Of a stretch of 64,000 nt of DNA, positions 1-21,883 are shown piece after piece (the stretch's first letter is position 1; each line of letters begins with the position of its first letter). Source of the DNA: an uncultured Pseudomonadales bacterium (GTDB lineage: Bacteria > Patescibacteriota > Microgenomatia > UBA1400 > PJMF01). Location of the stretch: positions 30,569-94,568 of the forward strand of contig CAZOWX010000001.1 of the NCBI GenBank assembly GCA_964583795.1, read 5' to 3'. A program made the translations under genes and the position numbers. A model generated the notes under the pieces. It did not search any database. It worked only from the letters and a program-made list of their open reading frames with translations, and was not told the DNA's origin.

Positions 1-1
1 C

Positions 2-880
2 AAAACAGCTCACATTGCTATCATTATTCTCCACTACAACGCACCAAAGTTTACGCTCGAGTGTTTACGTTCACTTGAGAATTTGAGTACAAAATATACC
101 CAGTTTAGTGTGATCGTCGTTGATAACTTTTCTCAAGAAATTTTTGCACAACCAAAAACAAGCTATGAACTAAAAGTCCTGCGAACGGATCAGAATCTTG
201 GATTCACTGGCGGAAATAATGTGGGAATTCGATATGCTTTTGAACATCTAAACCCTGATCACATTCTCCTTCTCAATAATGACACTACCGTGTCACCTGA
301 TTTTCTTGACAAGCTGGTTGGGTTTGCACAGACTCATACAAAGGTTGGAGCCATCACTCCAAAAATTTACTTTGAAAAAGGGTGCGAGTTTCACAAATCA
401 CAGTATACACATGATGAACTGGGCAAAGTCATTTGGTTTGCCGGTGGTAGCATTGACTGGCGAAATGTTTACGGCTTTCATCGCGGAGTTGATGAAGTTG
501 ATCGGGGACAATTTGATCTCCCCGTTATAGAGCGCTCGGAAAAGCAGATGCCCTACTATGGCTACCAAACGATGGACTTCGCTTCTGGTTGCTGTGTTTT
601 GATTCCTGCCGCAGTTTTAAAACAAGTTGGTTTGTTCGATGAATCGTATTTTTTATATTGGGAAGATGCTGATTTAAGTATGCGCATTCGCCAAGCTGGT
701 TTTCAGCTGTATTTCTGCCCTCAATCAGTCATTTGGCATAAGAATGCAGGCTCTACTGGTGGATCTGGTTCGAAACTGCAGCAGTATTACCAAAAACGTA
801 ATCGACTGAAGTTTGCACTCAAGTATGCTCCCCTTCGATCAAAACTAGCTGTTCTCAAACAATCCTTGTTAAATAGGTAA
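2..880 (+). CDS. Glycosyltransferase family 2 (5'-partial; the reading frame is open to the window edge)
   Basis: The frame is open from nt 2 (…KTAHIAIIILHYNAPKF…). GT2 hallmarks are VVDNFS, GGNNVGIRYAF, LLLNNDTTV and the C-terminal YWEDADLSMR motif. Confidence 0.8.
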   Translation, partial: KTAHIAIIILHYNAPKFTLECLRSLENLSTKYTQFSVIVVDNFSQEIFAQPKTSYELKVLRTDQNLGFTGGNNVGIRYAFEHLNPDHILLLNNDTTVSPDFLDKLVGFAQTHTKVGAITPKIYFEKGCEFHKSQYTHDELGKVIWFAGGSIDWRNVYGFHRGVDEVDRGQFDLPVIERSEKQMPYYGYQTMDFASGCCVLIPAAVLKQVGLFDESYFLYWEDADLSMRIRQAGFQLYFCPQSVIWHKNAGSTGGSGSKLQQYYQKRNRLKFALKYAPLRSKLAVLKQSLLNR

Positions 881-997
881 CAGAATACCAGATAGTGACT
901 CAAGCACTCAGCAACCAAACGTCACATCAACATTGTTTTGCGTTCCCTCTACATACTGTCACTCCTATGCCATATACTAACGTAAAGTAGTGTTAGA

Positions 998-1834
998 ATG
1001 AAAGATATGGAAAAACTTCCCATCACTGTTGTAGTTCTGACGAAAAATGAAGAACAAATGATAGTGAACTGTATCGAGACAGTACAATGGTGTCAAGAAA
1101 TCGTGGTCATCGATAGTCAATCAACTGACTCAACTGCGGCCCTTGCAAAGAGAGCTGGAGCTATCGTGTACACCACTGATAAAGATTCATTTGCAGAGCG
1201 ACGAAACTATGGCCTTACCAAAGTTCGCACTCCTTGGGTGTTTTATCTTGATGCTGATGAGCGAGTCACTCCAGATCTGATGATGGAAATTAAGTCAGCA
1301 ATACGTGATGGGTCAATCAACGCGTTACGCCTTCATCGACATAATTATCACTATGGGAAAATGATGAACTATGGAGGATGGGAAAAAGATCAGTTAGTCC
1401 GCATTTTTCGCACAGAAGCACTTACTACATGGAGCGGAAAAGTGCACGAGTCCGCCCAATTCTCAGGTCAAGAAAAACTTCTCAAAGCATCACTCGTTCA
1501 TCTCACGCATCGAAATATGGTCGAGGGCTTATACAAAACAATCTCTTGGACACATGATGAGGCACAGCTTTTATTTGAAGCCCATCACCCTCCAGTAACT
1601 CGATTTACTCTGCTTCGAAAAACAATCATGGAGTTTTTACGCCGAGCGTTTTTTTGGCATGGTAAAAAAGATGGCGTAGAAGGATGGATAGAAGCAATGG
1701 TTCAAGCCATGAATAAATTCATCGTGTATGAACAACTTTGGGAGCTACAACAAACCCCATCACTCTACGAAAAATACCAAAAACTAGACGAAGATATAAT
1801 CCGTCAGTGGGAAAACCAAGTCGATCATTCATGA
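998..1834 (+). CDS. Glycosyltransferase family 2
   Basis: N-terminal PITVVVLTKNEE…VVIDSQSTDST…YLDADE is a GT2 Rossmann/DxD arrangement of the LPS-core/WaaE-like type. Confidence 0.75.
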   Translation: MKDMEKLPITVVVLTKNEEQMIVNCIETVQWCQEIVVIDSQSTDSTAALAKRAGAIVYTTDKDSFAERRNYGLTKVRTPWVFYLDADERVTPDLMMEIKSAIRDGSINALRLHRHNYHYGKMMNYGGWEKDQLVRIFRTEALTTWSGKVHESAQFSGQEKLLKASLVHLTHRNMVEGLYKTISWTHDEAQLLFEAHHPPVTRFTLLRKTIMEFLRRAFFWHGKKDGVEGWIEAMVQAMNKFIVYEQLWELQQTPSLYEKYQKLDEDIIRQWENQVDHS

Positions 1835-3894
1835 AAAACAAACGCTTGAATATCTGTATTTACTCTCCATACATGCCCGATCACTTTGGCGGTGGAGAGC
1901 GTTATGTACTGAGTGTCGCTGAGTTTTTGGCAAGAACCCACCACGTAAGTATCGCGCTGTCCACAAACGACTTAACCAAAGAAAAAATTGCCATTATTCG
2001 ACAACGGTATCAAGATTTTTTCCAACTCAACTTGAATCATATTAAATTCATTGCCTCACCGCTTGGTCCAGGTCATTTTGTACAAAAACTACTCTGGACG
2101 AAACAATTTGATGTACTGTATTACTTAACAGATGGCAGTTTATTTTTTTCGCTCGCGAAGCGAAATGTGTTACACATCCAGTTCCCGTTTACTCACCACA
2201 TGAGCGGGTTTCTAAACCGCATAAAGCTGAAAAATTGGAATGTACGCAATACAAACTCACAATTTACAAAAGATGTCATTGAACGCAACTGGAAGACCGC
2301 TATTCAATACGTGCATACTCCATATGTTGATACTCAAATTTTTAGACCAGCACATAAGAAAGAAAAAATTATTCTCAACGTCGGACGATTTTTTAGCCAC
2401 TTACATACTAAGCGGCAAGATATTTTGGTAAAGGCATTTAAAAACTTAACAGAGAAGTATCCTCAACACATGAAAGGGTGGAAGCTGGTACTCATTGGTG
2501 GCGTTGAAGATGAAATTTATGCTAAAAAAATAGCCAATCTAGCAAAAGATTTGCCGATTAAAATCATTCATAATGCTTCTGCTGAAACTCTAAAAAGCTA
2601 CTACTCACTCGCACAAATCTACTGGCATGCTACCGGCTTTGGCGTCGACGAGTTTATTCATCCCATGTTTGTTGAGCACTTTGGCATTTCCACGATCGAA
2701 GCAATGGCGAGTGGAGCTATTCCCATCGTAATAAACAAGGGCGGACAAAAAGAGTTGGTGGAACATGGTGTTAATGGCTTTTTATGGAATGAAATTGAAT
2801 CACTTGAGGAAAGAACCATTGCCTGTATCCGTCAAGAAGTCGATTGCGAAGAGTTACAAGAAAAAGCTCGTAGAAGTGTCCTGCGATACTCTCCATCACA
2901 GTTTTTTTCAACATTAAATGCAATGATTGGCTCAAATCAGCCAATTCCAAGTGACATTTCGGGTGAAGTTTCAGTGATTATTCCCACATTTAATGGTAAA
3001 AAGCTTTTGGAAAAAAATATCTCAAGTATTTTTGAATCAATGCGAACTGGTGACGAACTCGTCATCGTCGATGACGCAAGTAACGATGACACTGTTGACT
3101 GGTTACAATCAGAGTTTTCATTGAGTAAAAATGAAGATCGGGCAGAATTTGACGAGTTTGTTTTTGATGGAACATTTGAGAAAAAAAACAAAAAAATTTT
3201 GATCAAATTAATTCAAAATAAAACGAATCTTCGATTTGCGGCTAGTTGTAACAAAGGCGTTAAACTCAGCACACATGAGCTGGTGTTTGTCGTGAATAAC
3301 GACGTTAAACTGAAATCAAATACGTTAACCACGCTCGTTCCATATTTTTTGAATCACAACGGGCAAGCGCATCAGATATTTGGAATCGGTTGCTTGGAGG
3401 AAGAACGAAAAAAAGGAAAGATAGAGTATTCTGGCAAAAACAGCCTCTGGTTTGAGCGTGGGCTATTTGTTCACTCAAAAGCTTCTGAAATGATTACTGG
3501 AGAGACAGCTTGGGTGAGTGGCGGCAGTGGGTTGTTTAGTAAAGCAAAGTGGCAAGAGCTTCAGGGGTTTGACAGACGTTTTTATCCTGCCTACTGGGAG
3601 GATATTGATCTTTCTGCTCGAGCGAAGGAAAGAGGCTGGCAAGTACTGTTTGATGCTGAGGCTGTAGTCGAACACCATCATGAATCCACAAACCAGACTG
3701 CCTTTGGCCAAGAGAGAATTAACCAGATGTCATTTCAAAATGGAATGTTGTTCATGTGGATACATACAAATTTTGTTCAAAAACTACAATTTTTGGCTTG
3801 GTTGCCATACCACCTCGTTATTACTAATAGGCGCTCTCATGGGGCTTTTTTGCACGGCTTATTAAGGCTTTTATTGAAAAACTCTCAATCATAG
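1831..3894 (+). CDS. Bifunctional glycosyltransferase: N-terminal GT4 (GT-B) domain fused to C-terminal GT2 domain
   Basis: The start was moved to the internal ATG at 1831 (MKNKRLNICIYSPY…), which forms an ATGA overlap with the upstream stop. The N-terminal half has the GT4 EHFGISTIEAMASGAIPIV motif. The C-terminal half has GT2 motifs (VSVIIPTFNG…LVIVDDASNDDT…YWEDIDLSARA). Confidence 0.75.
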   Translation: MKNKRLNICIYSPYMPDHFGGGERYVLSVAEFLARTHHVSIALSTNDLTKEKIAIIRQRYQDFFQLNLNHIKFIASPLGPGHFVQKLLWTKQFDVLYYLTDGSLFFSLAKRNVLHIQFPFTHHMSGFLNRIKLKNWNVRNTNSQFTKDVIERNWKTAIQYVHTPYVDTQIFRPAHKKEKIILNVGRFFSHLHTKRQDILVKAFKNLTEKYPQHMKGWKLVLIGGVEDEIYAKKIANLAKDLPIKIIHNASAETLKSYYSLAQIYWHATGFGVDEFIHPMFVEHFGISTIEAMASGAIPIVINKGGQKELVEHGVNGFLWNEIESLEERTIACIRQEVDCEELQEKARRSVLRYSPSQFFSTLNAMIGSNQPIPSDISGEVSVIIPTFNGKKLLEKNISSIFESMRTGDELVIVDDASNDDTVDWLQSEFSLSKNEDRAEFDEFVFDGTFEKKNKKILIKLIQNKTNLRFAASCNKGVKLSTHELVFVVNNDVKLKSNTLTTLVPYFLNHNGQAHQIFGIGCLEEERKKGKIEYSGKNSLWFERGLFVHSKASEMITGETAWVSGGSGLFSKAKWQELQGFDRRFYPAYWEDIDLSARAKERGWQVLFDAEAVVEHHHESTNQTAFGQERINQMSFQNGMLFMWIHTNFVQKLQFLAWLPYHLVITNRRSHGAFLHGLLRLLLKNSQS

Positions 3895-3935
3895 TACCAG
3901 ATAACACTATAACTTTGGTAAAATAACACTTATCT

Positions 3936-5570
3936 ATGACTCAGCTACTCAAGAGATACTCTTTTGGATTAATGTTTATTGCTATTATCTGTATCGCTAC
4001 TGTGCTTCGCCTCTATAAGCTTGACCAAGTCCCGTCTGGCATGAGCTGGGACGAAGCAGCAATTGGCTACAATGGCTACGCTATCTGGACTGTGCATCGT
4101 GACGAGTGGTTACATTTTATGCCATTTTCGTTTAAATCATTTGGGGATTTCAAGGCTCCGTTTGCTATCTATTTAAACGGAATATTTACAGTACTTTTCG
4201 GACTACAGCTTTGGGTAATACGTCTACCATTCGTAATTGCTGGTGTCGCAAGTATCATCGGAATGGCATGGTTGATTCATCTGTTGTTTCAAGTATTTCC
4301 ATTTCGTCAGGAAAATCAAAAAAACGCTTCTCAACTCACAGTTCTCGGGATTGCTTTCATCATCACGACTTCACCATGGCACATCTTTTTTACTCGGGCA
4401 GGATTTGAATCAGGTATGGCGATGGGCTTTATGATTTGGGGTATGTGTTTCTTTTTGCAAAGTCTCCACACTCAATCAAAACGTTTTTTATTTGTGGGTT
4501 TGAGTGTAATCAGTTTCGTATTGGGCCTGTATACCTATCACAGTGCTAAAATCTTTTTACCAATTTTTTTTGTTGTTCTTTTTGCCTTTTTCTTTCAATC
4601 AATCAAAAAACATTTCGCTGTCTATAGCTTTGGACTCATTTTCGGAATCATATTGCTGACACCACTCGTGTATGACTCGGTGCTTGGTCAGGGTACAGAA
4701 CGGTTTTCTCAAACTTCGTTATTTAGCAATCAAAAGTTGACCTCAACTGAAAAATTGACAACTTTTGTCAGTAACTATGCTCACCAATTTTCACCAGCTT
4801 TTTTGTTTGCTGGAGAAACAACCACACTTCGACATGGAGATGGGCACTGGGGAGTGTTGTTTTTAACCGATGGATTGTTGCTGATAGCGACAACTATCTG
4901 GTTTATTCTCCTTTCTGTATCGAAAAAAGCTGCTCGGTTTTCCTCTCCACTATCCAAAATCTACCTATTGGGAGTTTCATGGTTTTTAATCGGTTTGTTG
5001 CCAGCAGCAATCGGAATGGAAATTCCTCATGCCAACAGAGCATTATTAAGTTACCCAGGTTTTCTGATCATCGAAGCATTGGGAATATTTTTCCTACTGG
5101 AGAAACTTACTGCAAGTAGTAAACCAACAGTAAAACTTGTTGTTCAGGCACTATTAGGAACTGGATTCATGCTTCATGTTTTTTTTGTCGTGTCGTTTAC
5201 TCATGATTACTTTTCCAAATACTCGCTCGACTCAGCTGAGGCTTTTCAGTACGGTTACAAAGAGGTATTTGATTACGTTTTACCTCGCGAATCACAAGTT
5301 GAGAAAGTATTAATCACTTCTAAATATGGCCAACCGTACATTTACACATTGCTGTATCGCCACACCAATGCCATTTTGTATCACGGTGGGGCTCTGAGCA
5401 AATATGAGTACCCCGATACGGTCAATATCGGCGATGTGATTCGTAAAAACGCTATTGTTGTTGCAACCCCTGAAGAACTTGATCCATCTATTGCTGATCA
5501 ACTTATTCTTGCTCCAAGTGGAGAAGTTCGGTTTGTGATTATTAATACGGCAGAGCATCCAAGGCTATGA
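3936..5570 (+). CDS. GT-C membrane glycosyltransferase, PMT_2/ArnT-like (GT39/GT83-type), paralog 1 of the tandem array
   Basis: Polytopic membrane protein. The loop-1 acidic motif WDEAA, FKSFGDFKAPF, RLPFVIAGV and EIPHANRALL are shared with the three downstream paralogs. Confidence 0.75.
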   Translation: MTQLLKRYSFGLMFIAIICIATVLRLYKLDQVPSGMSWDEAAIGYNGYAIWTVHRDEWLHFMPFSFKSFGDFKAPFAIYLNGIFTVLFGLQLWVIRLPFVIAGVASIIGMAWLIHLLFQVFPFRQENQKNASQLTVLGIAFIITTSPWHIFFTRAGFESGMAMGFMIWGMCFFLQSLHTQSKRFLFVGLSVISFVLGLYTYHSAKIFLPIFFVVLFAFFFQSIKKHFAVYSFGLIFGIILLTPLVYDSVLGQGTERFSQTSLFSNQKLTSTEKLTTFVSNYAHQFSPAFLFAGETTTLRHGDGHWGVLFLTDGLLLIATTIWFILLSVSKKAARFSSPLSKIYLLGVSWFLIGLLPAAIGMEIPHANRALLSYPGFLIIEALGIFFLLEKLTASSKPTVKLVVQALLGTGFMLHVFFVVSFTHDYFSKYSLDSAEAFQYGYKEVFDYVLPRESQVEKVLITSKYGQPYIYTLLYRHTNAILYHGGALSKYEYPDTVNIGDVIRKNAIVVATPEELDPSIADQLILAPSGEVRFVIINTAEHPRL

Positions 5571-7255
5571 TATCGAAACTTATGACTCGCCATCACCTCG
5601 TTATTGTTAGTATCTTGTTGATCAGTTTTGCCCTACGGGTCGTCAATCTACAACATCTCCCTCCATCACCATATTGGGAAGAAGTCGCTTTAGGATATGA
5701 CGCGTATAGTATTTTAAAAACTGGAAAAGATCATCATGGTCACCTCTTTCCACTTGTGGCTTTTGAGTCGTTTGGTGACTACAAACCATCAGGATATTTT
5801 TATGCTATTGTGCCCTTTATAGCACTGATTGGTTTGTCGGTATTTGCAGTACGACTCCCATCAACTCTAGCAGGAGTTGCTATTGTCTACTTTAGTGGCG
5901 CGATTGCCAAATTACTGTTTCACTCTGAAATAGCGAAACAAGCGCATTCATGGAAAGCAATTTTACTTTCTCCACAAATACTGACCATGATTGTGACTGC
6001 ATTTTCACCGTGGGCCCTGCAATTTTCTCGGGGAGGGTGGGAAGTTAACTTAGCAACATGTTTTTTGACTATTGGTGTATACAGTGCACTACGAGCAGCG
6101 CAACAACTACAAACCAAAGGGCACTCAACAACTCTGGTGTTTCAATGGTACTTTATTGGCTTTATTTTCTTTATTCTCTCCACGTATACCTATCACTCGA
6201 CTCGGATCATTGCGCCACTCTTGGGGATAGTTACTGCAATCCCACTGCTCAAACAAGCCGCAAAATACAAACTCACCATTGCGGCGCTCCTATTTTTGGG
6301 AATTCTAACAATGCTCCCAATACTGTATCAAATAAAAGATCCAGCGGTCACTCATCGATTACAAGAAACTTCCGCTTTTACTACTCAACAAGAAATTGAT
6401 CAAAGTAATCAACTCATTACCCAATTTGGCTCAACTCGACTGGCAAGAATTGTGTTTCACCGTGACTGGTTTTACCTCAAAACATTTTTATCGAACTACT
6501 TTTCTCACTTTCGTCTCGATTACCTTTTTCTATCTGGAGATAACAATACTCGACATTCAACCCATTTTTTTGGATTATTTTTTCCAACTGACCTGGTTGT
6601 ACTTGCACTTGGAGTTATTGCGATGGTAACGCAATGGAAACACCGTTTTCATTTGTTGTGGATTTGGCTTGGTATCGGGCTCATCCCATCAGCTCTCACC
6701 AAAGATGTGCCACACGCTCTTCGCACCCTGCCAGTGCTGCCGGTATATATGGTAACTCTGGGAATTGGATTTACCTACTTATTTGAACAGCTGGCTAAAC
6801 TTCGTTTCTCAAAACTTCTTTTTGCAGGTATTAGCTTTATCGTTTTGGCTGAAATTATCGTGTATTGGCATTTTCACTTTACAGTATATCCAACCTATTC
6901 TTCCAAAGAATGGCAGTACGGCTATCAACAAATGATTGCGGCCATTAAAAGCAATCAACAAACAAATGAAGCAGTGTTTATTACCACTGAAAAAAAACGG
7001 CCAGCCATGTACTACTGGTTTTTTACTAAAACGGATCCCGTTTTAGTCCAAGCAGAAGAAAATACCGCTCAAAAAGATCAAGGAGAGTTTTTATCATTTC
7101 AAAATATCAAGTTCATTTTTCATTTATCAGGGAGTGAGCAAGGCCTAATTGCCAGCGGACCAGAGCAGCGAAAAAACTTTCCTAACGCTCAAGAGTTAGC
7201 AACCATTACCGATTTACAAGGCCATCCAATTTGGATTGTTTACCGGGCACAATAG
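5567..7255 (+). CDS. GT-C membrane glycosyltransferase, PMT_2/ArnT-like, paralog 2
   Basis: ATGA overlap with paralog 1. Motifs are WEEVALGYDAY, FESFGDYKPSGYFY, RLPSTLAGV and DVPHALRTLPV. Confidence 0.75.
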   Translation: MISKLMTRHHLVIVSILLISFALRVVNLQHLPPSPYWEEVALGYDAYSILKTGKDHHGHLFPLVAFESFGDYKPSGYFYAIVPFIALIGLSVFAVRLPSTLAGVAIVYFSGAIAKLLFHSEIAKQAHSWKAILLSPQILTMIVTAFSPWALQFSRGGWEVNLATCFLTIGVYSALRAAQQLQTKGHSTTLVFQWYFIGFIFFILSTYTYHSTRIIAPLLGIVTAIPLLKQAAKYKLTIAALLFLGILTMLPILYQIKDPAVTHRLQETSAFTTQQEIDQSNQLITQFGSTRLARIVFHRDWFYLKTFLSNYFSHFRLDYLFLSGDNNTRHSTHFFGLFFPTDLVVLALGVIAMVTQWKHRFHLLWIWLGIGLIPSALTKDVPHALRTLPVLPVYMVTLGIGFTYLFEQLAKLRFSKLLFAGISFIVLAEIIVYWHFHFTVYPTYSSKEWQYGYQQMIAAIKSNQQTNEAVFITTEKKRPAMYYWFFTKTDPVLVQAEENTAQKDQGEFLSFQNIKFIFHLSGSEQGLIASGPEQRKNFPNAQELATITDLQGHPIWIVYRAQ

Positions 7256-7267
7256 CAATTACATATC

Positions 7268-8947
7268 ATGTCTCATATTTTTACTCAACATCGATTCACT
7301 CTTTTAGCAGTAGTCATACTCGGATTAAGTTTTGTTTTTCGTTTTTGGCAATTAGGAAATGTGCCAGTTGGTTTGTATTGGGATGAAGTGGCTATGTATG
7401 TTGATGCGAAAACAGTTTCACAATCATTGAAAGATATGCATGGAAATAGCGCTCTACAAGCGATGTTTCCATCATATGGTGATTACAAGTTACCAGTGTA
7501 CATCTGGCTAGCAAGCTTGAGTTTTAAGCTGTTTGGAGCGAGCAACTTTGCGCTGCGATTGCCCAGTGCTATAGCAGGGATACTGCAAGGGTACCTCATC
7601 TTTGTATTGGTTAAAGAACTCTCAAATAAATTCATTTCGAAAGAAAAAAGTCAGTACTTGGGTTTATTGGGTTGGTTTGTTTCAGCAGTTTCACCATGGA
7701 GCGTGTTATTTTCGCGAACTGGATTTGAAGGACACATCGGTCAATTACTCATCTGCGCTTCAGTCTTCAGCTTCGTTTCTTCTAAAAGAAACAGGTTGTG
7801 GCTTATACCAGCTATAGTATTGGGAATCTTGAGCACATACACCTATTATAGTGTCCGGTTCGTTTGGCCCATCGTATTCATAGGGTACTGGTTTTTACTT
7901 CAACCATTTCCCAAAACACTACTGCAATTTGTTAAATCTAGTTTTGTGAGTGTAGCGTTACTTCTTATCTGGGGAATAGGAATCTTACCGCTCTTTTTTT
8001 CTCCTTGGTATCAACCAAGTCAACAATTTCGCCTTAGCACTCCATCGCTGATGGATTTGGGTCCATACAGTATTCGCTCAAACGAGTTTCGCGAAATGAG
8101 TGGCAATGGGCCACTTTCTAGAGTGTTTTATCATCAGCGCGTTTTGCAACTGCGCGATGTGCTCGAGCATTACGCGGATCATTTTGACTTTTCATATCTA
8201 TTTATTTCAGGAGATAAAAATTTACGACATAGTACGGGCTTCGATGGTCTGTTTTTACTCTTTAGCGCACCACTACTCGTAGCTGGAATCTTATATTTGG
8301 TGAAAAACGATGTTCGACTGTTTTTGTTTTTGTTTGGATGGTGGCTGATTGCCTTGTTACCAGCATCTATTCCAATTGAAACGCCTCACGCACTGCGATC
8401 ACTCAACGCCTTAACTCCGATACTTTTGTTAATGAGTTTCGGGGGTATTCCAATTACACAAATTATACAATCAATCCGACCGGCTTCATTTCGTTTTGGG
8501 GCAGTTTTTTTGATTATCCTCATGATAACAGTTCAAGTTACTTGGTTTACGGTTGACTATTTTTTTATTTATCCAGGTAAAAGTGCTCATGACTGGCAGG
8601 AGGGATACCAGACTCTAGCGAAAGTCATAGAAGATAAACATGGTTCATATGACAAAGTTTGGGCAAATCCGTATGATGATCGATTCTTTTTGTGGTATCT
8701 AGCGTACTCCAATATGGACGCGCAGCGGATTCAAAGCATAATGAAAGATACCTTTTTGACAGATCGAATTGACAATATTATTTTTCAAGAGTTTCCCTTT
8801 GATAAATCAAACCCCAGTGTCCGCCCGTTCATGACCATAAAACGCAGTACTGCAGACAACGATGAGAATAATCCATCGACAACGCAGCAAGAGATTTTGG
8901 GGTATGATCACCAACCATTGTTTATCATTCGTTATTATGAACGCTAA
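7268..8947 (+). CDS. GT-C membrane glycosyltransferase, PMT_2/ArnT-like, paralog 3
   Basis: Motifs are WDEVAMYVDAK, FPSYGDYKLPVYIW, RLPSAIAGI and ETPHALRSLNAL. Confidence 0.75.
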   Translation: MSHIFTQHRFTLLAVVILGLSFVFRFWQLGNVPVGLYWDEVAMYVDAKTVSQSLKDMHGNSALQAMFPSYGDYKLPVYIWLASLSFKLFGASNFALRLPSAIAGILQGYLIFVLVKELSNKFISKEKSQYLGLLGWFVSAVSPWSVLFSRTGFEGHIGQLLICASVFSFVSSKRNRLWLIPAIVLGILSTYTYYSVRFVWPIVFIGYWFLLQPFPKTLLQFVKSSFVSVALLLIWGIGILPLFFSPWYQPSQQFRLSTPSLMDLGPYSIRSNEFREMSGNGPLSRVFYHQRVLQLRDVLEHYADHFDFSYLFISGDKNLRHSTGFDGLFLLFSAPLLVAGILYLVKNDVRLFLFLFGWWLIALLPASIPIETPHALRSLNALTPILLLMSFGGIPITQIIQSIRPASFRFGAVFLIILMITVQVTWFTVDYFFIYPGKSAHDWQEGYQTLAKVIEDKHGSYDKVWANPYDDRFFLWYLAYSNMDAQRIQSIMKDTFLTDRIDNIIFQEFPFDKSNPSVRPFMTIKRSTADNDENNPSTTQQEILGYDHQPLFIIRYYER

Positions 8948-10517
8948 AACCTTCATCATTACACTTGTTTCCATTGTCGTTTTCGGATCAATTATTCGAT
9001 TCGTAGCTCTTGATCAATATCCACCTCAGCTTAACCGAGACGAAGCCGCTTTGGCCCTTAATGCCAGACTGATTGCTCAAACTGGTTTTGATGAGTGGCA
9101 TCATCACTTGCCACTGCAATTTCAGTCTTTTGGCGATTACAAGTTACCAGGGTATATCTACTTGTTATCAGGGTTGTTCTTAATTCACACTAGTGATGTT
9201 GTTGTGCGTTTGCCTTCAGCTTTAGCAGGGATGGGAATAGTCATTACTCTGCTATTTTGGGCACAAAATGTACTCAAATTTCCATTGTCGCGTGCATCCA
9301 AAATCGTCTTGCTCCTGAGCATTTCACTCTCTCCTTTTGCTATGTTTTACTCCAGGATGGCCTGGGAAGCAAACCTGTCACTTTTTCTGATGCTCTCTGC
9401 TTTGACACTACTACATTCTCAAAAACCAACACTTCACAAAGATCTTTTGGCTCTGCTGATCTACTTCGCAGCAATTTTGACCTACAACAGTGCATATATC
9501 TTGTTACCGTTCATTGCGTTTTCGGTAGTCTTATCAAGGGGAATCAACAAATACCGATTTTGGCTACTTCCACTCGCTTCATTTTTAGTCATATTTACCA
9601 TAAGCTCACTCATACTAATGTCGAATAACTCCCAAAAATCTGGAATTTTAATTTTTAGTGATGGTGCCATTCTCGATACCTATCCTAAATATCGCCAAAG
9701 TTTTCCTAATGTGTTGCGGCCCGTTGTCGGCAATAAATACGTCTATTTCTCACAGATTGCTGCCACTCACTATCTACAGACATTTTCTCCGTATTTTCTG
9801 ATTACTCATGGTGGACAGCACCCATGGCACTCAATTTTAGGGAAAGGGCACATTTTTTACAGTACATATGTTTTATTTCTTATCGGTGTTATGACTCAGC
9901 TGAGCAAAGCAATTTACTTTTTGAAAATGAGACACAAATGGAAAAAATTAAGTACTCGATCAATTATTCCGTTTTTTTTGCTAATCGTCTCACCATTACC
10001 CTCTATTTTTACCACAGACGCGCCCCATGCCACCCGAAGTTTGTTTACTTTTATCATGATTATTGTGTTTTCTGCTATCGGAGGACAACACCTGCTAAGC
10101 ACAGCAGCAAAACACTCATTCCAGTTGCGAAAAGCAGTCATCACCATTCTCTTGGGCTTGCTCATCTTTGAGGGTGCTAACTATTTAAACAGTTATTTTA
10201 TTGTGTGGCCCCACCAATTCTCTCCAGACTTTCAACTTGGACTCAAACAAAAAATCACAGATGAAGTGCTACAACCAAGAGACGGCAACATTGGCATTTT
10301 GGATACCGGCGAGTATGTATACGCCTCAGTCGCTTGGTATGCAAGGCTGCAACCACAGTTATTTTTCGATACAATAGAACGAAGTGGACCATCAGTAGCC
10401 GGTTTATATACTGTAACTCGAGTGGGGAAATACTACTTTATTCCTGACAAGAACATTGCTGTTCCTTACGGCTCAGAAGTACTCACTCCTACCAAATCTG
10501 GATGGGAATGGCAATAA
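8937..10517 (+). CDS. GT-C membrane glycosyltransferase, PMT_2/ArnT-like, paralog 4
   Basis: The start was moved to the ATG at 8937 (MNAKTFIITLVS…), overlapping the paralog-3 stop by 11 nt. Motifs are NRDEAALALNA, FQSFGDYKLPGYIY, RLPSALAGM and DAPHATRSLF. Confidence 0.7.
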   Translation: MNAKTFIITLVSIVVFGSIIRFVALDQYPPQLNRDEAALALNARLIAQTGFDEWHHHLPLQFQSFGDYKLPGYIYLLSGLFLIHTSDVVVRLPSALAGMGIVITLLFWAQNVLKFPLSRASKIVLLLSISLSPFAMFYSRMAWEANLSLFLMLSALTLLHSQKPTLHKDLLALLIYFAAILTYNSAYILLPFIAFSVVLSRGINKYRFWLLPLASFLVIFTISSLILMSNNSQKSGILIFSDGAILDTYPKYRQSFPNVLRPVVGNKYVYFSQIAATHYLQTFSPYFLITHGGQHPWHSILGKGHIFYSTYVLFLIGVMTQLSKAIYFLKMRHKWKKLSTRSIIPFFLLIVSPLPSIFTTDAPHATRSLFTFIMIIVFSAIGGQHLLSTAAKHSFQLRKAVITILLGLLIFEGANYLNSYFIVWPHQFSPDFQLGLKQKITDEVLQPRDGNIGILDTGEYVYASVAWYARLQPQLFFDTIERSGPSVAGLYTVTRVGKYYFIPDKNIAVPYGSEVLTPTKSGWEWQ

Positions 10518-10521
10518 TTAT

Positions 10522-11313
10522 ATGATCTCAGTTGTACTCGCGACCCACAACGAAGAAAAAAACATACAGCGCTGTTTGGAAGCGGTAAAAAGTTTTGCTG
10601 ACGAAATCATTGTTGTGGATGGTGCGTCAACGGATCAGACAGTTACCATTGCCAAAAGATTTGGGGCTCAAATCACTTCAACTACCAATAAACCCTTATT
10701 TCATATCAATAAACAGATGGCTATGGATATGGCAAAAGGGGAGTTAGTCCTACAACTTGATGCCGATGAAGTCGTTGATAAAGAGTTAGCCAGATGTATT
10801 CAAAAAATTCACACGCAGATAATCAGTGAGAAGCTTTCATCCGCACTTCCGTCGGCCTGGTGGATTCGTCGTAAAAACTGGTTTTTATCACGTTTTTTAA
10901 CAAAAGGTGGACAATATCCTGATCCAGTGATTCGACTCTACCAAAAAGGCAAAGCGCATTTACCGCAAAAAGATGTGCACGAACAAATGCAAGTCGATGG
11001 AGAAGTGGGCTTTGCAAAGGGACATTTACTGCACTATAGTAGTCCAACTTTTAACGTTTATTTGCGCAAATGGAATGACTACGCCACACTAAAGGCCAAA
11101 GAACTACTGGCACAAAAACGCTCAATATCTGCTGGCAACGCGGTTTATTTTTTACTTTTTAAGCCTGTTATAACCTTTCTTTCCATATTCGTTCGTCACA
11201 AAGGATTTGTCGATGGCATACCAGGATTCATTTTTGCGTTGTATAGTGGGTTACTGTTTCCAGTTGCATACTTAAAGTATTGGGAGATGCTACAAAAAAA
11301 GAATCAAACATGA
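10522..11313 (+). CDS. Glycosyltransferase family 2
   Basis: Start taken at the internal ATG 10522 (MISVVLATHNEEKNIQRCLE…IIVVDGASTDQT…LQLDADE). This is the GT2 fold. Confidence 0.75.
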   Translation: MISVVLATHNEEKNIQRCLEAVKSFADEIIVVDGASTDQTVTIAKRFGAQITSTTNKPLFHINKQMAMDMAKGELVLQLDADEVVDKELARCIQKIHTQIISEKLSSALPSAWWIRRKNWFLSRFLTKGGQYPDPVIRLYQKGKAHLPQKDVHEQMQVDGEVGFAKGHLLHYSSPTFNVYLRKWNDYATLKAKELLAQKRSISAGNAVYFLLFKPVITFLSIFVRHKGFVDGIPGFIFALYSGLLFPVAYLKYWEMLQKKNQT

Positions 11314-12395
11314 CCGTCCTACTCAATTCATCACCACTGCATAATGCCAACTCAATACGTGGCGTTGGAGTGTATACCCGTTTTTTGTCGGATGCACTTG
11401 AATCGCTTCAAACTCAACAAGACCAGTTTATTACCGGTGATGATATTGGACTTGATCAGCTCAACGCCATTATGGCAAAAAGAGGAATTGACATCATGCA
11501 TTACCCTTTTTTTGACCTGTTTTTGCACACATTGCCATTACCAATTGAACAAAAAATTCTTGGCAAATCAAAACAAAAAGTAGTTGTTACCATCCACGAC
11601 GTGATTCCACTGCTTTACCCCGATCATTATCCAGTTGGTATAAAGGGTTCATTTCATTTCTTTTTGCAAAAACAAGCATTGAAAAGTGTTGATGCAATTA
11701 TTACCGATTCTCAGACTTCCAAAGCAGATATCGTAAAGCATCTTTCGATGAATGAAGAGAAAGTCACCAGCATTCCTCTGGCAGGAAACCCTCAACTTCA
11801 AAAAAGTGACGCTGCTACAATTGCTAAAGTTCGCTCACACTTTCAATTACCTAAACATTTTGTGCTCTATGTTGGTGATATCAACTATAATAAAAATATT
11901 CCAGCGTTGATTCAGGCAGTACAATCAATCGATCAAAATGTTCATCTGGTGTGTGTGGGTAGGAATTTTTACCCACAACATATTCCTGAATGGCAAGCAA
12001 TAGAAGCAGTGCTTGAACCAGTAAAAGATAGGGTTCATTTTCTAACAAAAATTGCTAAAGATGATACTCAAACATTATCGGCCCTTTATAGTACTTGCGC
12101 GGTATATGTTCAACCGTCGTTATATGAGGGGTTTGGGTTACCCCTTTTAGAAGCAATGCAGTGTGATGCTCTGATTGTTTCCAGTAACACCCCTGCATTG
12201 ACAGAAATTGGAGGAGAAGGAGTACTCTTTGTTAAGCCGTCCACTAGTGAACTTGCTCAAGGAATCAAAAAAACGCTTTCATACACAGAGCAAAAAAAAC
12301 ACCAATTGAAAGCTAAAAACCACGAAACAGTACAACACTTTTCCTGGCACAAAACCGCTCTGCAGACAATCCAAGTGTATAAAAGCGTCCTATGA
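11310..12395 (+). CDS. Glycosyltransferase family 4 (GT-B)
   Basis: ATGA overlap with upstream gene. The C-terminal YVQPSLYEGFGLPLLEAMQCDALIVSSNTPALTEI is the GT4 EX7E-type motif. Confidence 0.8.
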   Translation: MTVLLNSSPLHNANSIRGVGVYTRFLSDALESLQTQQDQFITGDDIGLDQLNAIMAKRGIDIMHYPFFDLFLHTLPLPIEQKILGKSKQKVVVTIHDVIPLLYPDHYPVGIKGSFHFFLQKQALKSVDAIITDSQTSKADIVKHLSMNEEKVTSIPLAGNPQLQKSDAATIAKVRSHFQLPKHFVLYVGDINYNKNIPALIQAVQSIDQNVHLVCVGRNFYPQHIPEWQAIEAVLEPVKDRVHFLTKIAKDDTQTLSALYSTCAVYVQPSLYEGFGLPLLEAMQCDALIVSSNTPALTEIGGEGVLFVKPSTSELAQGIKKTLSYTEQKKHQLKAKNHETVQHFSWHKTALQTIQVYKSVL

Positions 12396-15277
12396 AAAAA
12401 ATAGTGTTACTACTTACTATCGCTGTACTCACGTGGGTCAACTTTCACACCTATCTTGATTCACGCTTCCCTTACACCAATGATGGAGAAAATCATCTCG
12501 CTCGATTTGCCAACTATAGAATTGCTTTGAAGGAAGGGCAAATTCCTCCTCGTTTCGCTCCCAATTTAATTAACCACTATGGCTATCCGGTCTTTAATTT
12601 TAACTATCCACTAGCCAACATTCTCTCGTTACCGCTAAGCGCTGTAAAGCTCAATCCAGAGCTCTCATTTAAGCTTATTGCGGTGAGTGCTTATGTGTTT
12701 GGATTGATAGGGATGATGCTGCTGTTGTCAAAACGCACACAATCAACCAAAGCAATACTACTTGGGTTGGTCGTTTTTGGAACAGCACCCTATTTTGCTA
12801 ATACCATCCTTTTCCGTGGGAGCATAGGTGAGCTGCTCGCTTTGACTATCCTTCCATGGGTACTACTCACAATTCACAAAACGATTGAGAATCATCGGTT
12901 TTCGGTATCGACTGTCATCATCTGGTCAGTTTTTTTGCTGAGTCACAACGTTAGTGTCGTCATTTCTATTCCATTTTTACTTGCATACACATTTTTTATG
13001 ATGTATCAGAGCAAGAAAATAACTACTTTTTTTTCCTTACTAAAAATGAGCGTAGCTTCGATAGGATTAACGTTGTGGTTTTGGCTACCAGCTTTAGCTG
13101 AAGCAGATGAGACCGTCGTGCGATCGGCAGCAATCGCGAATCAATTTTTTCAACACTTCCCAACAACACAGGAGTTATTGTTTGGTCAGTTACGTTTTGG
13201 TTTTTCCGAGATTGGCCCGGTCGATTCACTGGGGATGCAACTAGGAGTCGTTGTAACGGTGAGTATTTTCTTAAGTATGCTCGCAGCGATAAAACTACTG
13301 ATTACTAAACAAAAAATTTCTAAACGGATATTTTTTTTATTCTCAACAGTACTGCTGTTAATCTTTTTACAACTCGATCTCTCATCATTTATTTGGAAAC
13401 TCATTTCTCCGCTTCAGATTATTCAATTCCCGTGGCGACTCGCGCTACTCACGACGCTGGTCACACCACTTTTATTGATTGAAGTGATTCCGTACCTTTC
13501 TCGAAAGCTACTGTATTTGGTCGGCATGTTTGCATTGATGAGTGTATATCTTATTGCGCAACTCACACCAATCGATTACTTTCATAAAGAGCAAATCGAG
13601 TATGATTTATTCTCACAAAGCACTTCGACACAAAATGAGAATCGTACGAAAAATTTTAGTTATATTGAAATTGGTGATTGGAAGCCAACAGCAATAATAG
13701 AAGGGAATGGGAGAAGTGATGTTCGAGTGTGGACTGGATCTCACAGGTTTTATAAGCTTAACTTACAATCAACAAGTCTTATTATCGAGCCAACGATGAA
13801 TTTTTTAGGGTGGGAGACAACGGTCATAGACAAATCAGGCAAAAAAGAATCCATCAGGTACATCGATAATAATCACACTCAGGGCCGAATTGCTTTTGAA
13901 CTACCAAGCGGTGAGTATGAAGTGCGGTCAAGATTTACCCAAAATACTATTGCTCGAAAGATGGGGAACTCACTTTTTGTCGTGACACTTACACTGTTGA
14001 TCGGGTTTTTTATCATCCGAAACAAGGTCTATACAAGAACAATAGCAACATTTCGATCGCTAGCTGATACCCAAAAACTCATCGTGATTGCCACAATCTG
14101 GTGGGTTTTTCTCTTTATTATCGGAGCAGTTGCGCATTTCGCAATCCCCTTCACCAATACATTTTCTACCTATGCTGTACAGGAAGCCTCTCAATTACCG
14201 GACTGGTTTAAACATTGGGGAAACTTTGATGGGGGATCGTATATGATTATTTCTGAAAAAGGCTATCTTGGGATCGGTCTTATTCAGGCGTACTTTCCTG
14301 CCTATCCAATCATACTCAAGATCGTAACCGATAGACTTTCTTTTTTGGTTCCTTTGTTTGAAATTTCAATCCTTGATGTTCGCTTCATTAGCGGGATAGG
14401 CATTAACTTTATACTGACAATACTGCTATTTGTTGTCGCTAACCGATATTTTTCACTCCGATTCTCAATGCGGCAACGAACGAATATATTAATAGGTTTT
14501 CTCCTTTTTCCAACGGCGTTTTTTATTCATGCTCTGTACACGGAAACATTTTTTCTTTTCTTGCTGGTCCTGAGTCTCTATTTTTATCATAAAAAAAAGT
14601 TGAAATTGTTGTCGATAACGCTGATAGGGCTGACTGCTACTCGCATTGTGGGGATTGTTCTGGTCCCAGCACTCGTTCTTGATTTACTTTTTAGCTATAA
14701 GTGGGACTCGAAAAAATCTGTTATTAAACAAGTAGCACTATTCACTCGACAACACTTTCAAACAATTACTGCCATTGTAATTGGTGGGAGCGGCTTAGCA
14801 CTCTACATGTGGTATCTTTGGATGAATTTTCAGGATCCACTGTACTTTTTTCATGTTCAGTCATCATTTGGAGCAGGCAGACAACAATCAATTGTGACAT
14901 TTCCTCAAGTTGTCTGGAGATATATTAAAATTTTGTGGACAGCCCGTCCATTTAACTTGATGTATTTCAATTACCTCCAAGAGTTTCTGTTTACAATGGG
15001 AACACTTTTAATTTTAGTCATTGCCTTCATCAAAAGAAAGCAACTAAACATTTCATTACCTGAACTGTTTTTTAGCATCGGGGCGTTCTTTCTGCCTACG
15101 TTAACTGGAAATTTTTCGAGTATGCCCCGGTATGTACTTGTTTGTTTGCCAATTTTTATTGTCACGAGCCGGTTGTTTGAAAAATCGAAACTCGTGAAAT
15201 ATATTTACGTCACACTAAGCACATGTTTAGCTTGTATGAATATTATTTTGTTTATCCAGGGACACTGGGTCGCCTAA
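12392..15277 (+). CDS. Large (961 aa) polytopic membrane protein built from two GT-C-like halves (PMT/YfhO-like N-terminus, mannosyltransferase-like C-terminus)
   Basis: About 25 predicted hydrophobic segments. The N-terminal loop has DGENH. A central ~150-aa soluble segment sits around 13.6–13.95 kb. The second membrane half carries WGNFDGGSYMII. Family assignment is tentative. Confidence 0.5.
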   Translation: MKKIVLLLTIAVLTWVNFHTYLDSRFPYTNDGENHLARFANYRIALKEGQIPPRFAPNLINHYGYPVFNFNYPLANILSLPLSAVKLNPELSFKLIAVSAYVFGLIGMMLLLSKRTQSTKAILLGLVVFGTAPYFANTILFRGSIGELLALTILPWVLLTIHKTIENHRFSVSTVIIWSVFLLSHNVSVVISIPFLLAYTFFMMYQSKKITTFFSLLKMSVASIGLTLWFWLPALAEADETVVRSAAIANQFFQHFPTTQELLFGQLRFGFSEIGPVDSLGMQLGVVVTVSIFLSMLAAIKLLITKQKISKRIFFLFSTVLLLIFLQLDLSSFIWKLISPLQIIQFPWRLALLTTLVTPLLLIEVIPYLSRKLLYLVGMFALMSVYLIAQLTPIDYFHKEQIEYDLFSQSTSTQNENRTKNFSYIEIGDWKPTAIIEGNGRSDVRVWTGSHRFYKLNLQSTSLIIEPTMNFLGWETTVIDKSGKKESIRYIDNNHTQGRIAFELPSGEYEVRSRFTQNTIARKMGNSLFVVTLTLLIGFFIIRNKVYTRTIATFRSLADTQKLIVIATIWWVFLFIIGAVAHFAIPFTNTFSTYAVQEASQLPDWFKHWGNFDGGSYMIISEKGYLGIGLIQAYFPAYPIILKIVTDRLSFLVPLFEISILDVRFISGIGINFILTILLFVVANRYFSLRFSMRQRTNILIGFLLFPTAFFIHALYTETFFLFLLVLSLYFYHKKKLKLLSITLIGLTATRIVGIVLVPALVLDLLFSYKWDSKKSVIKQVALFTRQHFQTITAIVIGGSGLALYMWYLWMNFQDPLYFFHVQSSFGAGRQQSIVTFPQVVWRYIKILWTARPFNLMYFNYLQEFLFTMGTLLILVIAFIKRKQLNISLPELFFSIGAFFLPTLTGNFSSMPRYVLVCLPIFIVTSRLFEKSKLVKYIYVTLSTCLACMNIILFIQGHWVA

Positions 15278-15318
15278 ATACAAAATTCTTAACAAAAAAT
15301 CGATGATTGAGGAGCACT

Positions 15319-16257
15319 ATGTCACAAAAAATTATTGTTACCGGTGGAAGCGGCTTCTTAGGCACACATCTTTGTCGCTCGTTGCAAAAAGAGGGGTATG
15401 CGGTCCTCAACATTGATTTAAAAGAGAGCAGTGAAGTACAAACCATCATTGCCGATATCAGAGATGAAAAAGCAATGCACGAATACATCAAAGATGCCGC
15501 TGCAGTTTTTCACCTAGCGGCACTAATTGAAGCAGGTGAGTCGGTAAAATTTCCTCAAAAATTTATTGACTATAATGTTTCTGGCACAGTAAGCGTACTT
15601 GAAGCGATGAGAGCAAATAGCATTCCTCTGTTTTTATTTTCCTCAAGTGCTGCTATCTACGGCGAACCTCTGAGAGTTCCAATTGAGGAAGATGACAGAA
15701 CTTTGCCTATTAATCCATACGGAATGACCAAGCTTGCCATGGAAGCTCTAGTATCTTCTTATGTTTCCAGTTTTCAGATGACTGGAGTCGCTTTGCGGTA
15801 TTTTAATTTGTATGGACCAGAAGAACATCATCAGCCAGAATCTCATGCAATTCCGCGGTTTATTCGTCAAATTTATCACGGTGAGGAAGTAACAATCTGG
15901 GGAAGTGGGGAGTATCAAAGAGACTTTATTCATATTTCAGATGTTGTCAGTGCCCATACATTGGCACTACGCTACGCCTTAGAGCACCCAAAACAGTACC
16001 ACTACTACAATATATCAACAGAGATTCCGAAAAGCGTCATTGACGTCATTCACATGGTCGAAAAAGCAATGGGGAAGACAGCCAATATCACTCATTATCC
16101 TGATCGACCCGGCGATCCACTGATCCTGGTGGCTAAAAGTCAAAAAGCCAGGAATGATCTTAACTGGGTACCGCAGATGAAAATTGAAGATGGAATTGCC
16201 CAAACTGTTGAGTACTTTGTCAATCTCTGGAAAAATCAACCACCTAAAGATTTTTAA
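15319..16257 (+). CDS. NAD-dependent nucleotide-sugar epimerase/dehydratase (UDP-glucose 4-epimerase-like)
   Basis: A GGAG RBS sits 5 nt upstream of ATG 15319. The Rossmann motif is KIIVTGGSGFLGTHL. The SDR-extended layout matches the GalE family. Confidence 0.75.
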   Translation: MSQKIIVTGGSGFLGTHLCRSLQKEGYAVLNIDLKESSEVQTIIADIRDEKAMHEYIKDAAAVFHLAALIEAGESVKFPQKFIDYNVSGTVSVLEAMRANSIPLFLFSSSAAIYGEPLRVPIEEDDRTLPINPYGMTKLAMEALVSSYVSSFQMTGVALRYFNLYGPEEHHQPESHAIPRFIRQIYHGEEVTIWGSGEYQRDFIHISDVVSAHTLALRYALEHPKQYHYYNISTEIPKSVIDVIHMVEKAMGKTANITHYPDRPGDPLILVAKSQKARNDLNWVPQMKIEDGIAQTVEYFVNLWKNQPPKDF

Positions 16258-17788: not shown

Positions 17789-18975
17789 GTTTGTCTCAGT
17801 TTAAGATGCACAAAGTATAGATTGATGAGTAATCCGGTGCACTCAGTTCCCAACATTACCCAAGCCGCCCCGATACCACCAGCTATCGGAACTATAAGCA
17901 CATTTAATCCTAAATTTACTACTGTATTTGCTATTCCCCAAGGCAAAAACTGTTTTATTAGTCTAGAACTTTGCACAATCGTACTCAATGGAGAGTTTAC
18001 AAATAGCACTATAGTTACGAGTGAAAATACCTTGACAATCTCTTGAGAAGAAGCGTAGGCATCACCAAGCAATCCTTTGGTTAACAATGCGCTAAGTACC
18101 CAAAGCACACCTGCAGTCACTACACCGGTTATCCCCATAAGAAGCGTTAACATACCAATTTGCCGGCGCGTCATACTCCCTGATTGAGCAGATAAATGAA
18201 ACAAGTTTTGTCCAATAGTATTGGGAAGTAAGCTCACAGCATCAAGATAACGGTAAGCAGCAGAGTACAATCCCAATGCACTATGACCCAACTTTGATTC
18301 CAATATCATCGCATCACCTCTACTATACACTGCCGATGTTACGATCAACGAAGCATACGCACTTGATTCACTCAAAACTTTTTGAAGTTCATGAAATGAA
18401 CATCGGCGTAATGTGTAATACTGGGATGGTATATACCAAAAAAGAGTAAACAATGAGCTAAGTAAGAAACTGGCGTATATTTGAAACAAAGTCAGACTGT
18501 GCGCAAAAAAAAGTAGAAGTAGAAACGGAGCAAAATATTTTGATAATTGTTTTAGCGCAATGTAAATGGGTTGCTTGTGCACTAAGTAATAGGCATCAAC
18601 AATACTAGTCAAAGCTTCTGGAATCAGTAACAATAAACCAATAGTCAATTCAAGAAACGAAAAAACCCGAAACATACTGACGTACACAGCAAAAATAACC
18701 ATCGCCACTAGCAAAGTGACCAAGCGAGCTTGAGCACTCTTGCAAATAAGCTCTTGTTCTTTGTCTTTCGACCAATGCACTTGAAACCATTGAATGAGTC
18801 CCCAATCAAAGATGAGGGTGAGCAGTGAGATAACAATCATAAAATAGGAAAACTTACCAAAAATTTCAGGTTCAAGAACGCGTGCAAAAAAAATAAACAA
18901 AGCAGTTGAAAATAACTTCACAAGTAGTAAACCAGAAAAGTGGGCCCCTGAGCGAACAAGCAGTTTTCGTACCAT
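17785..18975 (-). CDS. Wzx-like polysaccharide/oligosaccharide flippase (MOP superfamily)
   Basis: About 12 TM segments. The N-terminus (LLVKLFSTALFIFFARVLEPEIFGKFSY) is typical of polysaccharide biosynthesis protein/Wzx. Confidence 0.65.
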   Translation of the reverse strand: MVRKLLVRSGAHFSGLLLVKLFSTALFIFFARVLEPEIFGKFSYFMIVISLLTLIFDWGLIQWFQVHWSKDKEQELICKSAQARLVTLLVAMVIFAVYVSMFRVFSFLELTIGLLLLIPEALTSIVDAYYLVHKQPIYIALKQLSKYFAPFLLLLFFAHSLTLFQIYASFLLSSLFTLFWYIPSQYYTLRRCSFHELQKVLSESSAYASLIVTSAVYSRGDAMILESKLGHSALGLYSAAYRYLDAVSLLPNTIGQNLFHLSAQSGSMTRRQIGMLTLLMGITGVVTAGVLWVLSALLTKGLLGDAYASSQEIVKVFSLVTIVLFVNSPLSTIVQSSRLIKQFLPWGIANTVVNLGLNVLIVPIAGGIGAAWVMLGTECTGLLINLYFVHLKLRQT

Positions 18976-21880: not shown

Positions 21881-21883
21881 CGA

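Follow-up and report, generated by a model that had tools for sequence, protein, structure and literature searches.

Four paralogous GT-C glycosyltransferases form a conserved cassette, predicted to face outward, in a glycan operon of Patescibacteria

Introduction

Why are four diverged membrane glycosyltransferases kept head to tail in one operon, and on which side of the membrane would they act? The question was raised by a stretch of 64,000 nucleotides (assembly GCA_964583795.1, contig CAZOWX010000001.1, positions 30,569 to 94,568 of the forward strand), the whole of which was analysed and is called the window (64 kb) throughout. It is deposited as DNA of an uncultured Pseudomonadales bacterium, with a GTDB lineage in Patescibacteriota (Microgenomatia). 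Patescibacteria are ultra-small bacteria with genomes of about 1 Mb, are mostly uncultured, and little is known of the chemistry of their cell envelope. Four consecutive genes on the plus strand of the window had been described, in an initial annotation made from the sequence, as a tandem array of GT-C glycosyltransferases; their products are named W1–W4 here (genes 1–4). From the analysis below we are nearly certain that W1–W4 are outward-facing GT-C enzymes that form a conserved paralog cassette. What such a cassette would make is weighed in the Discussion.

Results

Sequence relationships and gene junctions of the array

Open reading frames (ORFs) were called mechanically in the window and in related loci. 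W1–W4 were compared pairwise by BLASTP, and all 6 pairs aligned (E 2e-19 to 2e-60, 24–29% identity, 465–528 aligned columns); in a MAFFT alignment W2–W4 were 24–27% identical to W1. By these alignments the similarity is far above chance and the four are true paralogs, as had been proposed when they were described as consecutive, diverged copies. Overlaps had been reported along the whole array, and were found between genes 1 and 2 (a 4-nt ATGA overlap, through which W2 is translationally coupled to W1) and between genes 3 and 4 (an 11-nt overlap, ATGAACGCTAA, given a W4 start at the ATG at 8937); genes 2 and 3 do not overlap and are separated in the window by a 12-nt gap. The W4 ORF was listed from 8862 (8862–10517), with the ATG at 8937 as an alternative start and the likely one.

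The motifs that had been said to be shared were all present. Each protein carries an acidic motif in its first loop and a second motif (variants in Table 1), followed by RLP[FS]x[IL]AG and [ED]xPHAxRxL. Two details of the earlier description were corrected: W1 reads PHANRAL and departs from the R[ST]L ending given for the late motif, and RLP is followed by F or S only. Other positions invariant across W1–W4 were D56, S146-P147, R154, E158, T200-Y201-x-S203, H300, G306 and R368.

Predicted fold and membrane topology

The GT-C fold, so far proposed from motifs, was checked by structure prediction and upheld. W1 was modelled with AlphaFold2 from 112 homologs (predicted local distance difference test score 96.3, predicted TM-score 0.94), and the model was searched with Foldseek, in which ArnT was ranked first. 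The model consists of 11 transmembrane helices and a C-terminal alpha/beta domain of ~110 aa placed outside the membrane, with no beta-trefoil insertion (MIR domain). The first transmembrane helix spans residues 9–26, and D39-E40 lies 13 residues beyond it, where the first loop helix begins. The model thus shows two marks of the GT-C superfamily at the level of the fold, a polytopic protein of 7–13 transmembrane helices in the GT-C arrangement and conserved acidic residues in the first extracytoplasmic loop. For a third mark, a sugar donor linked to polyprenyl phosphate or diphosphate, gene context alone offers a candidate source, a DPM1/ArnC-like GT2 at 24472–25296 and in related clusters.

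For topology, helix boundaries were taken from the W1 model, and the density of lysine plus arginine was counted per loop in all four proteins. The density was 0.19–0.26 in the predicted cytoplasmic loops and 0.06–0.08 in the outside loops. This positive-inside bias therefore places the N-terminus inside and the D-E loop and all other motifs outward; a cytoplasmic position of the acidic pair, which the initial annotation had named as the contrary case, was not found.

Family assignment

All window proteins were scanned against Pfam, in which the gathering cut-off of PMT_2 (PF13231) is 26.1 bits. The PMT/ArnT-like assignment of the initial annotation was recovered for W3, which matches PMT_2; W1, W2 and W4 had no Pfam match at E <= 0.01, and PF02366 matched no protein of the window. 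W1–W4 had no NCBIfam match, ArnT models included, and a profile of W1–W4 gave 0 matches against all PDB sequences at E <= 1. Among the 120 best homologs, precomputed PF13231 or PF02366 matches were carried by ~40%, PF02366 by a few. As far as these searches reach, membership in GT83, GT39 (PF02366) or the Emb family could not be demonstrated for W1–W4; they form a divergent group of the PMT_2 clan, largely specific to Patescibacteria.

Distribution and conservation of the cassette

W1 is identical to an NCBI protein record, and its best homologs come from Patescibacteria, some of them labelled at source as 'glycosyltransferase family 39' or 'ArnT-like'. The scan for relatives covered a single genome for each species and yielded 289; the named records were Pacebacteria, Woesebacteria and Microgenomates (all Patescibacteria), apart from those with odd titles. 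An exhaustive search with a hidden Markov model (HMM) recovered 4,215 cluster representatives (50% identity) at E <= 1e-30. From the relatives, 80 loci (L-numbers) were fetched with 10-kb flanks, anchored on W1-type peptide patterns; all locus counts are conditional on the presence of W1 and hence lower bounds. ORFs of these loci were searched with the family HMM, and orthology was assigned by best match to the window paralogs. Assignments were clear, the top paralog scoring at least about twice the second best, and identity was 31–54% between orthologs versus ~25% between paralogs.

In most loci of sufficient length, between three and six members of the family lay downstream of the W1 ortholog. 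The complete order W1-W2-W3-W4 was found on one strand in 31 loci. Completeness was counted in 55 loci, those in which the sequence runs on for 8 kb or more downstream of W1, and the subsets were nested: all four genes in 31/55, W1–W3 in 4/55, W1–W2 in 6/55 and W1 alone in 14/55. Average-linkage clustering of 235 family members gave four main clusters (82 sequences with W1, 53 with W2, 37 with W3 and 32 with W4), each holding one window gene, and four small extra clades. Since there are four ortholog clades in a fixed order, the duplications are old.

W1 and W2 overlap by a median of 4 nt in 52 loci (median -4 nt), and W3 and W4 likewise (median -4 nt, 31 loci); the W2–W3 junction is frequently interrupted (median 1,274 nt). 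A missing fifth component between W2 and W3 was considered and rejected, the inserts of relatives being unrelated genes (ArgRS, AAA ATPase, unknowns) or extra PMT_2-like genes.

Within every clade, [D/E]39, E40, D56, D71, K73, R96, R154, E158, Y201 and R368 were ~100% conserved; E40 reached 100% in all four, and the W2 clade has E at position 39 in 98%. All four proteins are likely to be catalytically competent, because residues of catalytic type are conserved at this level in each ortholog clade. Clade-specific substitutions fall at a few putative pocket positions: in the order W1/W2/W3/W4, position 38 is W/W/W/R, 148 is W/W/W/V, 202 is H/H/F-Y/N, 299 is R/R/R/W and 303 is G/Q/G/P, so that R38, V148, N202, W299 and P303 are hallmarks of the W4 clade. 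With one ortholog clade per gene, the same order and these substitutions, the view that the four are old tandem paralogs that have been sub-functionalised is strongly supported.

Two further observations were made on the related loci. In six of them (L009, L020, L023, L079, L026, L045) W2–W4 or W3–W4 are absent and genes of the family clades x1, x2 and x7 are found instead, often downstream of W1 on the opposite strand, which suggests a lineage-specific replacement of the later enzymes. The odd titles mentioned above ('uncultured Pseudomonadales', 'Vitreimonas sp.', 'Methylococcaceae') are carried by L002, L006, L008, L009, L021, L038, L043, L047 and many more. A wider taxonomic range was considered on their account and rejected; these labels are probably wrong, because the loci have a GC content of 30–46% and the same synteny as Patescibacteria.

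The operon around the array

The run of genes conserved near W1 in other species corresponds to window genes 83–15277 only and is made up of GT2, GT4 and GT-C genes (Table 1). The GT2 domain of the GT4-GT2 protein upstream of W1 (residues ~408–693) is 42–46% identical to the N-termini of two W1 homologs (P0036 and P0089; E 1e-78 to 1e-88). The same domain is thus fused to GT4 in the window, is a free gene in many loci, and is N-terminal on W1 orthologs of ~800–890 aa elsewhere (L014, L017, L019, L039, L040, L058, L060). This switching of the fusion partner ties the cytoplasmic glycosyltransferases functionally to W1. GT2 genes of the window showed sub-threshold similarity to rhamnosyltransferases and GlfT1, and GT2 'D' probably starts later than its listed TTG.

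Double GT-C protein 'F' carries YTNDGENH after its first transmembrane helix, and a beta-sandwich at ~435–515 joins its two GT-C-type halves. In most relatives the halves are adjacent separate genes (~560 and ~400 aa), and homologs carry PF10131 (N half) or PF04188 PIG-V (C half), one being labelled 'Gpi18-like mannosyltransferase'. Further upstream in relatives lie a PTPS_related/YfhO/AftD-like GT-C gene, a Wzx flippase (Polysacc_synt_3, E 3e-50) and another GT2, a part of the cluster for which the window begins too late; in some relatives (L002, L006) a 226-aa DPM1-type GT2 is found inside the conserved cluster. A promoter and terminator scan of positions 1–17000 gave no promoter enrichment and weak intragenic hairpins only, and was uninformative on operon boundaries.

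Other GT-C and glycan genes of the window

Besides the array, four more GT-C-like genes had been listed in the initial annotation. Three of them pass PMT_2, and the N half of 'F' is of GT-C type; their reading as close paralogs of the array was not sustained. A common family of eight GT-C genes was rejected, since the W1–W4 HMM found no further member among all window ORFs. When aligned with the array profile by hhalign, 29891–31474 gave a probability of 95.7%, 19053–20597 gave 79% over 138 columns only, and 39993–41528 showed no relation. At the level of these profiles the three PMT_2 genes are superfamily relatives of the array that belong to other glycan clusters. Eight GT-C genes in 64 kb had been called extreme, which does not hold for the lineage: related loci carry up to 6 family members in ~21 kb.

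The GT2 at 24472–25296 is a possible source of a lipid-linked donor; its sub-threshold matches cover about half of the PgfS and ArnC models and most of the PpgS model. Other glycan clusters of the window hold Wzx-like genes, Wzy_C, a B12-binding radical SAM enzyme, many GT2 and GT4 genes, ManC and a Bac_transf phosphoglycosyl transferase. One of these clusters (16244–25753, minus strand) contains a double-GT2 protein, a PMT_2 GT-C gene with a Wzx-like gene on either side, two GT2 genes (one DPM1/ArnC-like), a flavodoxin and the radical SAM enzyme (21884–23470); the last two, taken as a pair, suggest that a sugar is modified in an unusual way.

Elsewhere, an RnfD/NqrB-like membrane protein adjoins an ApbE flavin transferase (26859–29147), with no other RNF/NQR subunits seen in the window. 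A storage-glucan set lies at 41530–48903 on the minus strand (phosphoglucose isomerase, BadF/BcrAD-type ATPase, GH15, GH57, GlgA-like glycogen synthase). A homolog of Lit (lipoprotein intramolecular transacylase; 53457–54095) is placed among GT4 genes, upstream of ManC and of the Bac_transf gene (56425–57048), which is followed by a DUF4012 protein (57165–59216). MraZ and RsmH are found at 62635–63968, probably as the start of a division and cell-wall cluster. The whole 64 kb held no tRNA gene and no Rfam family at threshold.

Table 1. Coordinates of the array, its operon and other glycan genes in the window
Feature	Coordinates	Strand	Evidence and remarks
GT2 'A', rhamnosyltransferase-like	83-880	+	Pfam, NCBIfam; 60/80 loci; start uncertain, near window edge
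GT2 'B'	998-1834	+	Pfam; 66/80 loci
GT4-GT2 fusion, directly upstream of W1	1738-3894	+	Pfam Glycos_transf_1 and Glycos_transf_2; 56/80 loci
W1, GT-C glycosyltransferase, core cassette member	3936-5570	+	544 aa; WDEAA, FKSFGDFK, RLPFVIAG, PHANRAL
W2, GT-C paralog, variant of acidic motif	5567-7255	+	562 aa; WEEVA, FESFGDYK; BLASTP vs W1 1.7e-50, vs W3 2e-60
W3, GT-C paralog, sole Pfam-recognised one of four	7268-8947	+	559 aa; WDEVA, FPSYGDYK; PMT_2 32.3 bits
W4, most divergent GT-C paralog	8937-10517	+	RDEAA, FQSFGDYK; BLASTP vs W1-W3 2e-19 to 2e-29
GT2 'D', directly downstream of W4	10456-11313	+	Pfam; 59/80 loci, median identity 56%
GT4 'E'	11280-12395	+	Pfam; 32/80 loci, count limited by 10-kb flank
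Double GT-C protein 'F'	12392-15277	+	961 aa; N half PTPS_related/YfhO/AftD-like, C half PIG-V/Gpi18-like
NAD-dependent sugar epimerase/dehydratase, end of co-directional run	15307-16257	+	Pfam Epimerase 7e-64; weakly conserved here, 9/80 loci
Separate PMT_2-type GT-C	19053-20597	-	PMT_2 54.1 bits; FWVDEFS after first transmembrane helix; flanked by two Wzx-like genes
Candidate polyprenyl-phosphate sugar synthase (DPM1/GtrB/ArnC-type GT2)	24472-25296	-	Sub-threshold PgfS, ArnC, PpgS
Separate PMT_2-type GT-C	29891-31474	+	PMT_2 30.1 bits; FWLDEAA after first transmembrane helix; then two GT4 genes
Separate PMT_2-type GT-C	39993-41528	+	PMT_2 37.4 bits; adjoins Wzy_C (O-antigen-ligase-like) gene 38161-39993

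Discussion

Proposed function and alternatives

We consider it somewhat better than an even chance that W1–W4 are non-redundant, probably stepwise transferases that depend on lipid-phosphate sugars and mature a surface glycan outside the membrane. From the predicted fold and topology, the residue conservation, the gene order and the glycan-operon setting, we infer each step of the following pathway. The operon's own GT2 and GT4 enzymes would build, in the cytoplasm, an oligosaccharide on a polyprenyl carrier, which would then cross the membrane by way of a Wzx-type flippase; in relatives the flippase gene lies in the cluster. W1, then W2, W3 and W4, plus the double GT-C protein 'F', would add one sugar each, at a different position or linkage, with polyprenyl-phosphate-monosaccharides as the donors. 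The enzymes would be held in the cytoplasmic membrane with the N-terminus inside and [D/E]39-E40, D56, D71-x-K73, R96, R154, E158, Y201 and R368 at the outer face. The product would be a conserved surface glycan, that is, a wall polysaccharide, a lipoglycan or a glycan later passed to protein. The nested presence of the genes and the clade-specific putative pocket residues fit an ordered series with one sugar per enzyme, and the window holds a wider glycan-assembly setting beyond the operon (phosphoglycosyl transferase, ManC, DPM1/ArnC-like GT2).

Several points weigh against this proposal. The evidence does not directly separate a glycan from a protein or lipid acceptor, and both the PMT_2 family and the D-E motif are just as characteristic of protein O-mannosyltransferases (PMTs). 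The pairwise coupling, by which W1–W2 and W3–W4 overlap by a median of 4 nt and W2–W3 is often interrupted, could mean heterodimers. Nested counts were anchored at W1 with 10-kb flanks, so W2–W4 genes located elsewhere in a genome would escape them, and the clustering of the invariant residues into a three-dimensional active site remains predicted.

In one alternative, W1–W4 would be PMT-type protein O-glycosyl (mannosyl) transferases, each with its own secreted or surface proteins (pili, S-layer), and maybe paired as W1–W2 and W3–W4 heterodimers like yeast Pmt1–Pmt2. We regard this as unlikely. The motif is alike in the GT39 enzymes (Pmt1–Pmt2, Pmt4, bacterial Pmt), but the W proteins are without a MIR domain and, like every other protein of the window, without a PF02366 match. 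PMTs require only a polyprenyl-phosphate-mannose synthase, whereas the cassette is locked with five or six cytoplasmic GT2/GT4 enzymes, Wzx and more GT-C enzymes, an operon that is unlike that of PMTs and suits the building of a larger glycan. An obligate W1–W2 dimer is made less likely by the 14 of 55 loci in which W1 occurs without W2. The initial annotation had left the choice between protein O-glycosylation and the decoration of a cell-surface glycan; given the GT2, GT4 and Wzx context, protein O-glycosylation is less favoured than glycan extension.

Side-chain decoration is a second alternative. In three-component systems (GtrA/B/C, CsbB-GtcA-YfhO, GacI/K/L, GT136) a polyprenyl-phosphate-sugar synthase (GT2), a flippase and a GT-C enzyme act together (PMC11127046). 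Each of these types of component is found in the conserved cluster of relatives, and W1–W4 could be decorators of this kind (GtrC, YfhO, GacL, ArnT-like), each placing one substoichiometric sugar or aminosugar on a finished polymer (teichoic-acid-like, wall polysaccharide) or on a membrane lipid, with a role in surface variation and not in a core glycan. This we hold to be decidedly improbable. Such systems have one GT-C enzyme per modification, and their genes usually vary from strain to strain; in the present cluster, four to seven GT-C modules stand in fixed order, and order and orthology are kept across many species. ArnT itself (GT83; undecaprenyl-phosphate-L-Ara4N:lipid A transferase; PDB 5EZM/5F15) is alike in architecture, but structural identity is 10–11%, the PDB profile search found no relation to it by sequence, and the W1 model has 11 predicted transmembrane helices where ArnT has 13. 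ArnT is a single gene of the arn operon, unlike the four-paralog cassette, and no genes of arnA, arnB or arnD type were found in the conserved operon, in which the array is accompanied by GT2, GT4, Wzx and GT-C genes. A lipid A acceptor is implausible in the lineage; neither lipid A nor lipopolysaccharide is expected in this monoderm group.

That W1–W4 make up one obligate hetero-oligomer, with one or two catalytic subunits and the rest as scaffold or acceptor-binding parts, is very improbable: the 1:1:1:1 gene order with overlapping stop and start codons is conserved and GT-C heteromers are known (EmbA–EmbB, 7bvf; Pmt1–Pmt2), but all four clades keep every catalytic-type residue at ~100%, natural subsets exist (W1 only, W1–W2, W1–W3), and no W–W fusion was seen among the best 150 representatives or the 120 homologs listed. 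Operon context and conservation of catalytic residues together weigh against all three of these alternatives.

Stepwise maturation of a glycan outside the membrane, the reading we prefer, has counterparts in known systems. Mycobacterial embCAB and Aft enzymes (GT53, GT85, GT89 and others) are likewise tandem paralogous GT-C genes in one operon, and extend a wall glycan outside the membrane from polyprenyl-phosphate sugars after a cytoplasmic GT2 (WbbL/GlfT-type), with EmbA and EmbB as a heterodimer; their length of ~1,100 aa, their C-terminal carbohydrate-binding modules and Emb homology are not shared by the W proteins. ALG3/9/12 and ALG6/8/10 of the endoplasmic reticulum (ER) resemble the cassette as a stepwise lumenal series, which is an analogy of mechanism and not of family, at 9% identity; ALG enzymes are eukaryotic and their genes are dispersed in the genome, and no oligosaccharyltransferase (STT3, PglB, AglB) was seen in the window.

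A more far-reaching form of the proposal counts the six or seven cytoplasmic GT2/GT4 domains, the Wzx flippase and the six or more GT-C modules as parts of one fixed, stepwise extracytoplasmic assembly line, a bacterial counterpart of ER-lumenal ALG or of mycobacterial arabinogalactan and lipoarabinomannan assembly. Its product would be a hallmark envelope glycan or lipoglycan of Microgenomates-type Patescibacteria, and may mediate attachment to a host. We offer this tentatively, as doubtful rather than probable.

Significance

The enzyme class is already known, as automated annotation calls many of the homologs GT39 or ArnT-like. In the openly accessible literature, no link was found between Patescibacteria (or the candidate phyla radiation) and GT39, GT83 or GT-C arrays, and the conserved four-paralog cassette with its operon was not found in the searchable open-access part. 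Of the four W proteins, three go unrecognised by the standard Pfam and NCBIfam models, and the GT-C content of such genomes is therefore under-annotated.

The cassette provides concrete targets for heterologous biochemistry, with four enzymes, candidate catalytic residues and clade-specific putative pocket residues, and a marker for the comparative genomics of this group of Patescibacteria. The cluster around it exceeds 15 kb, is kept in content and order across many species, and is dominated by GT-C enzymes predicted to act outside the membrane. Its existence implies a surface glycan that is both conserved and elaborate, and to which an appreciable part of these reduced genomes is devoted.

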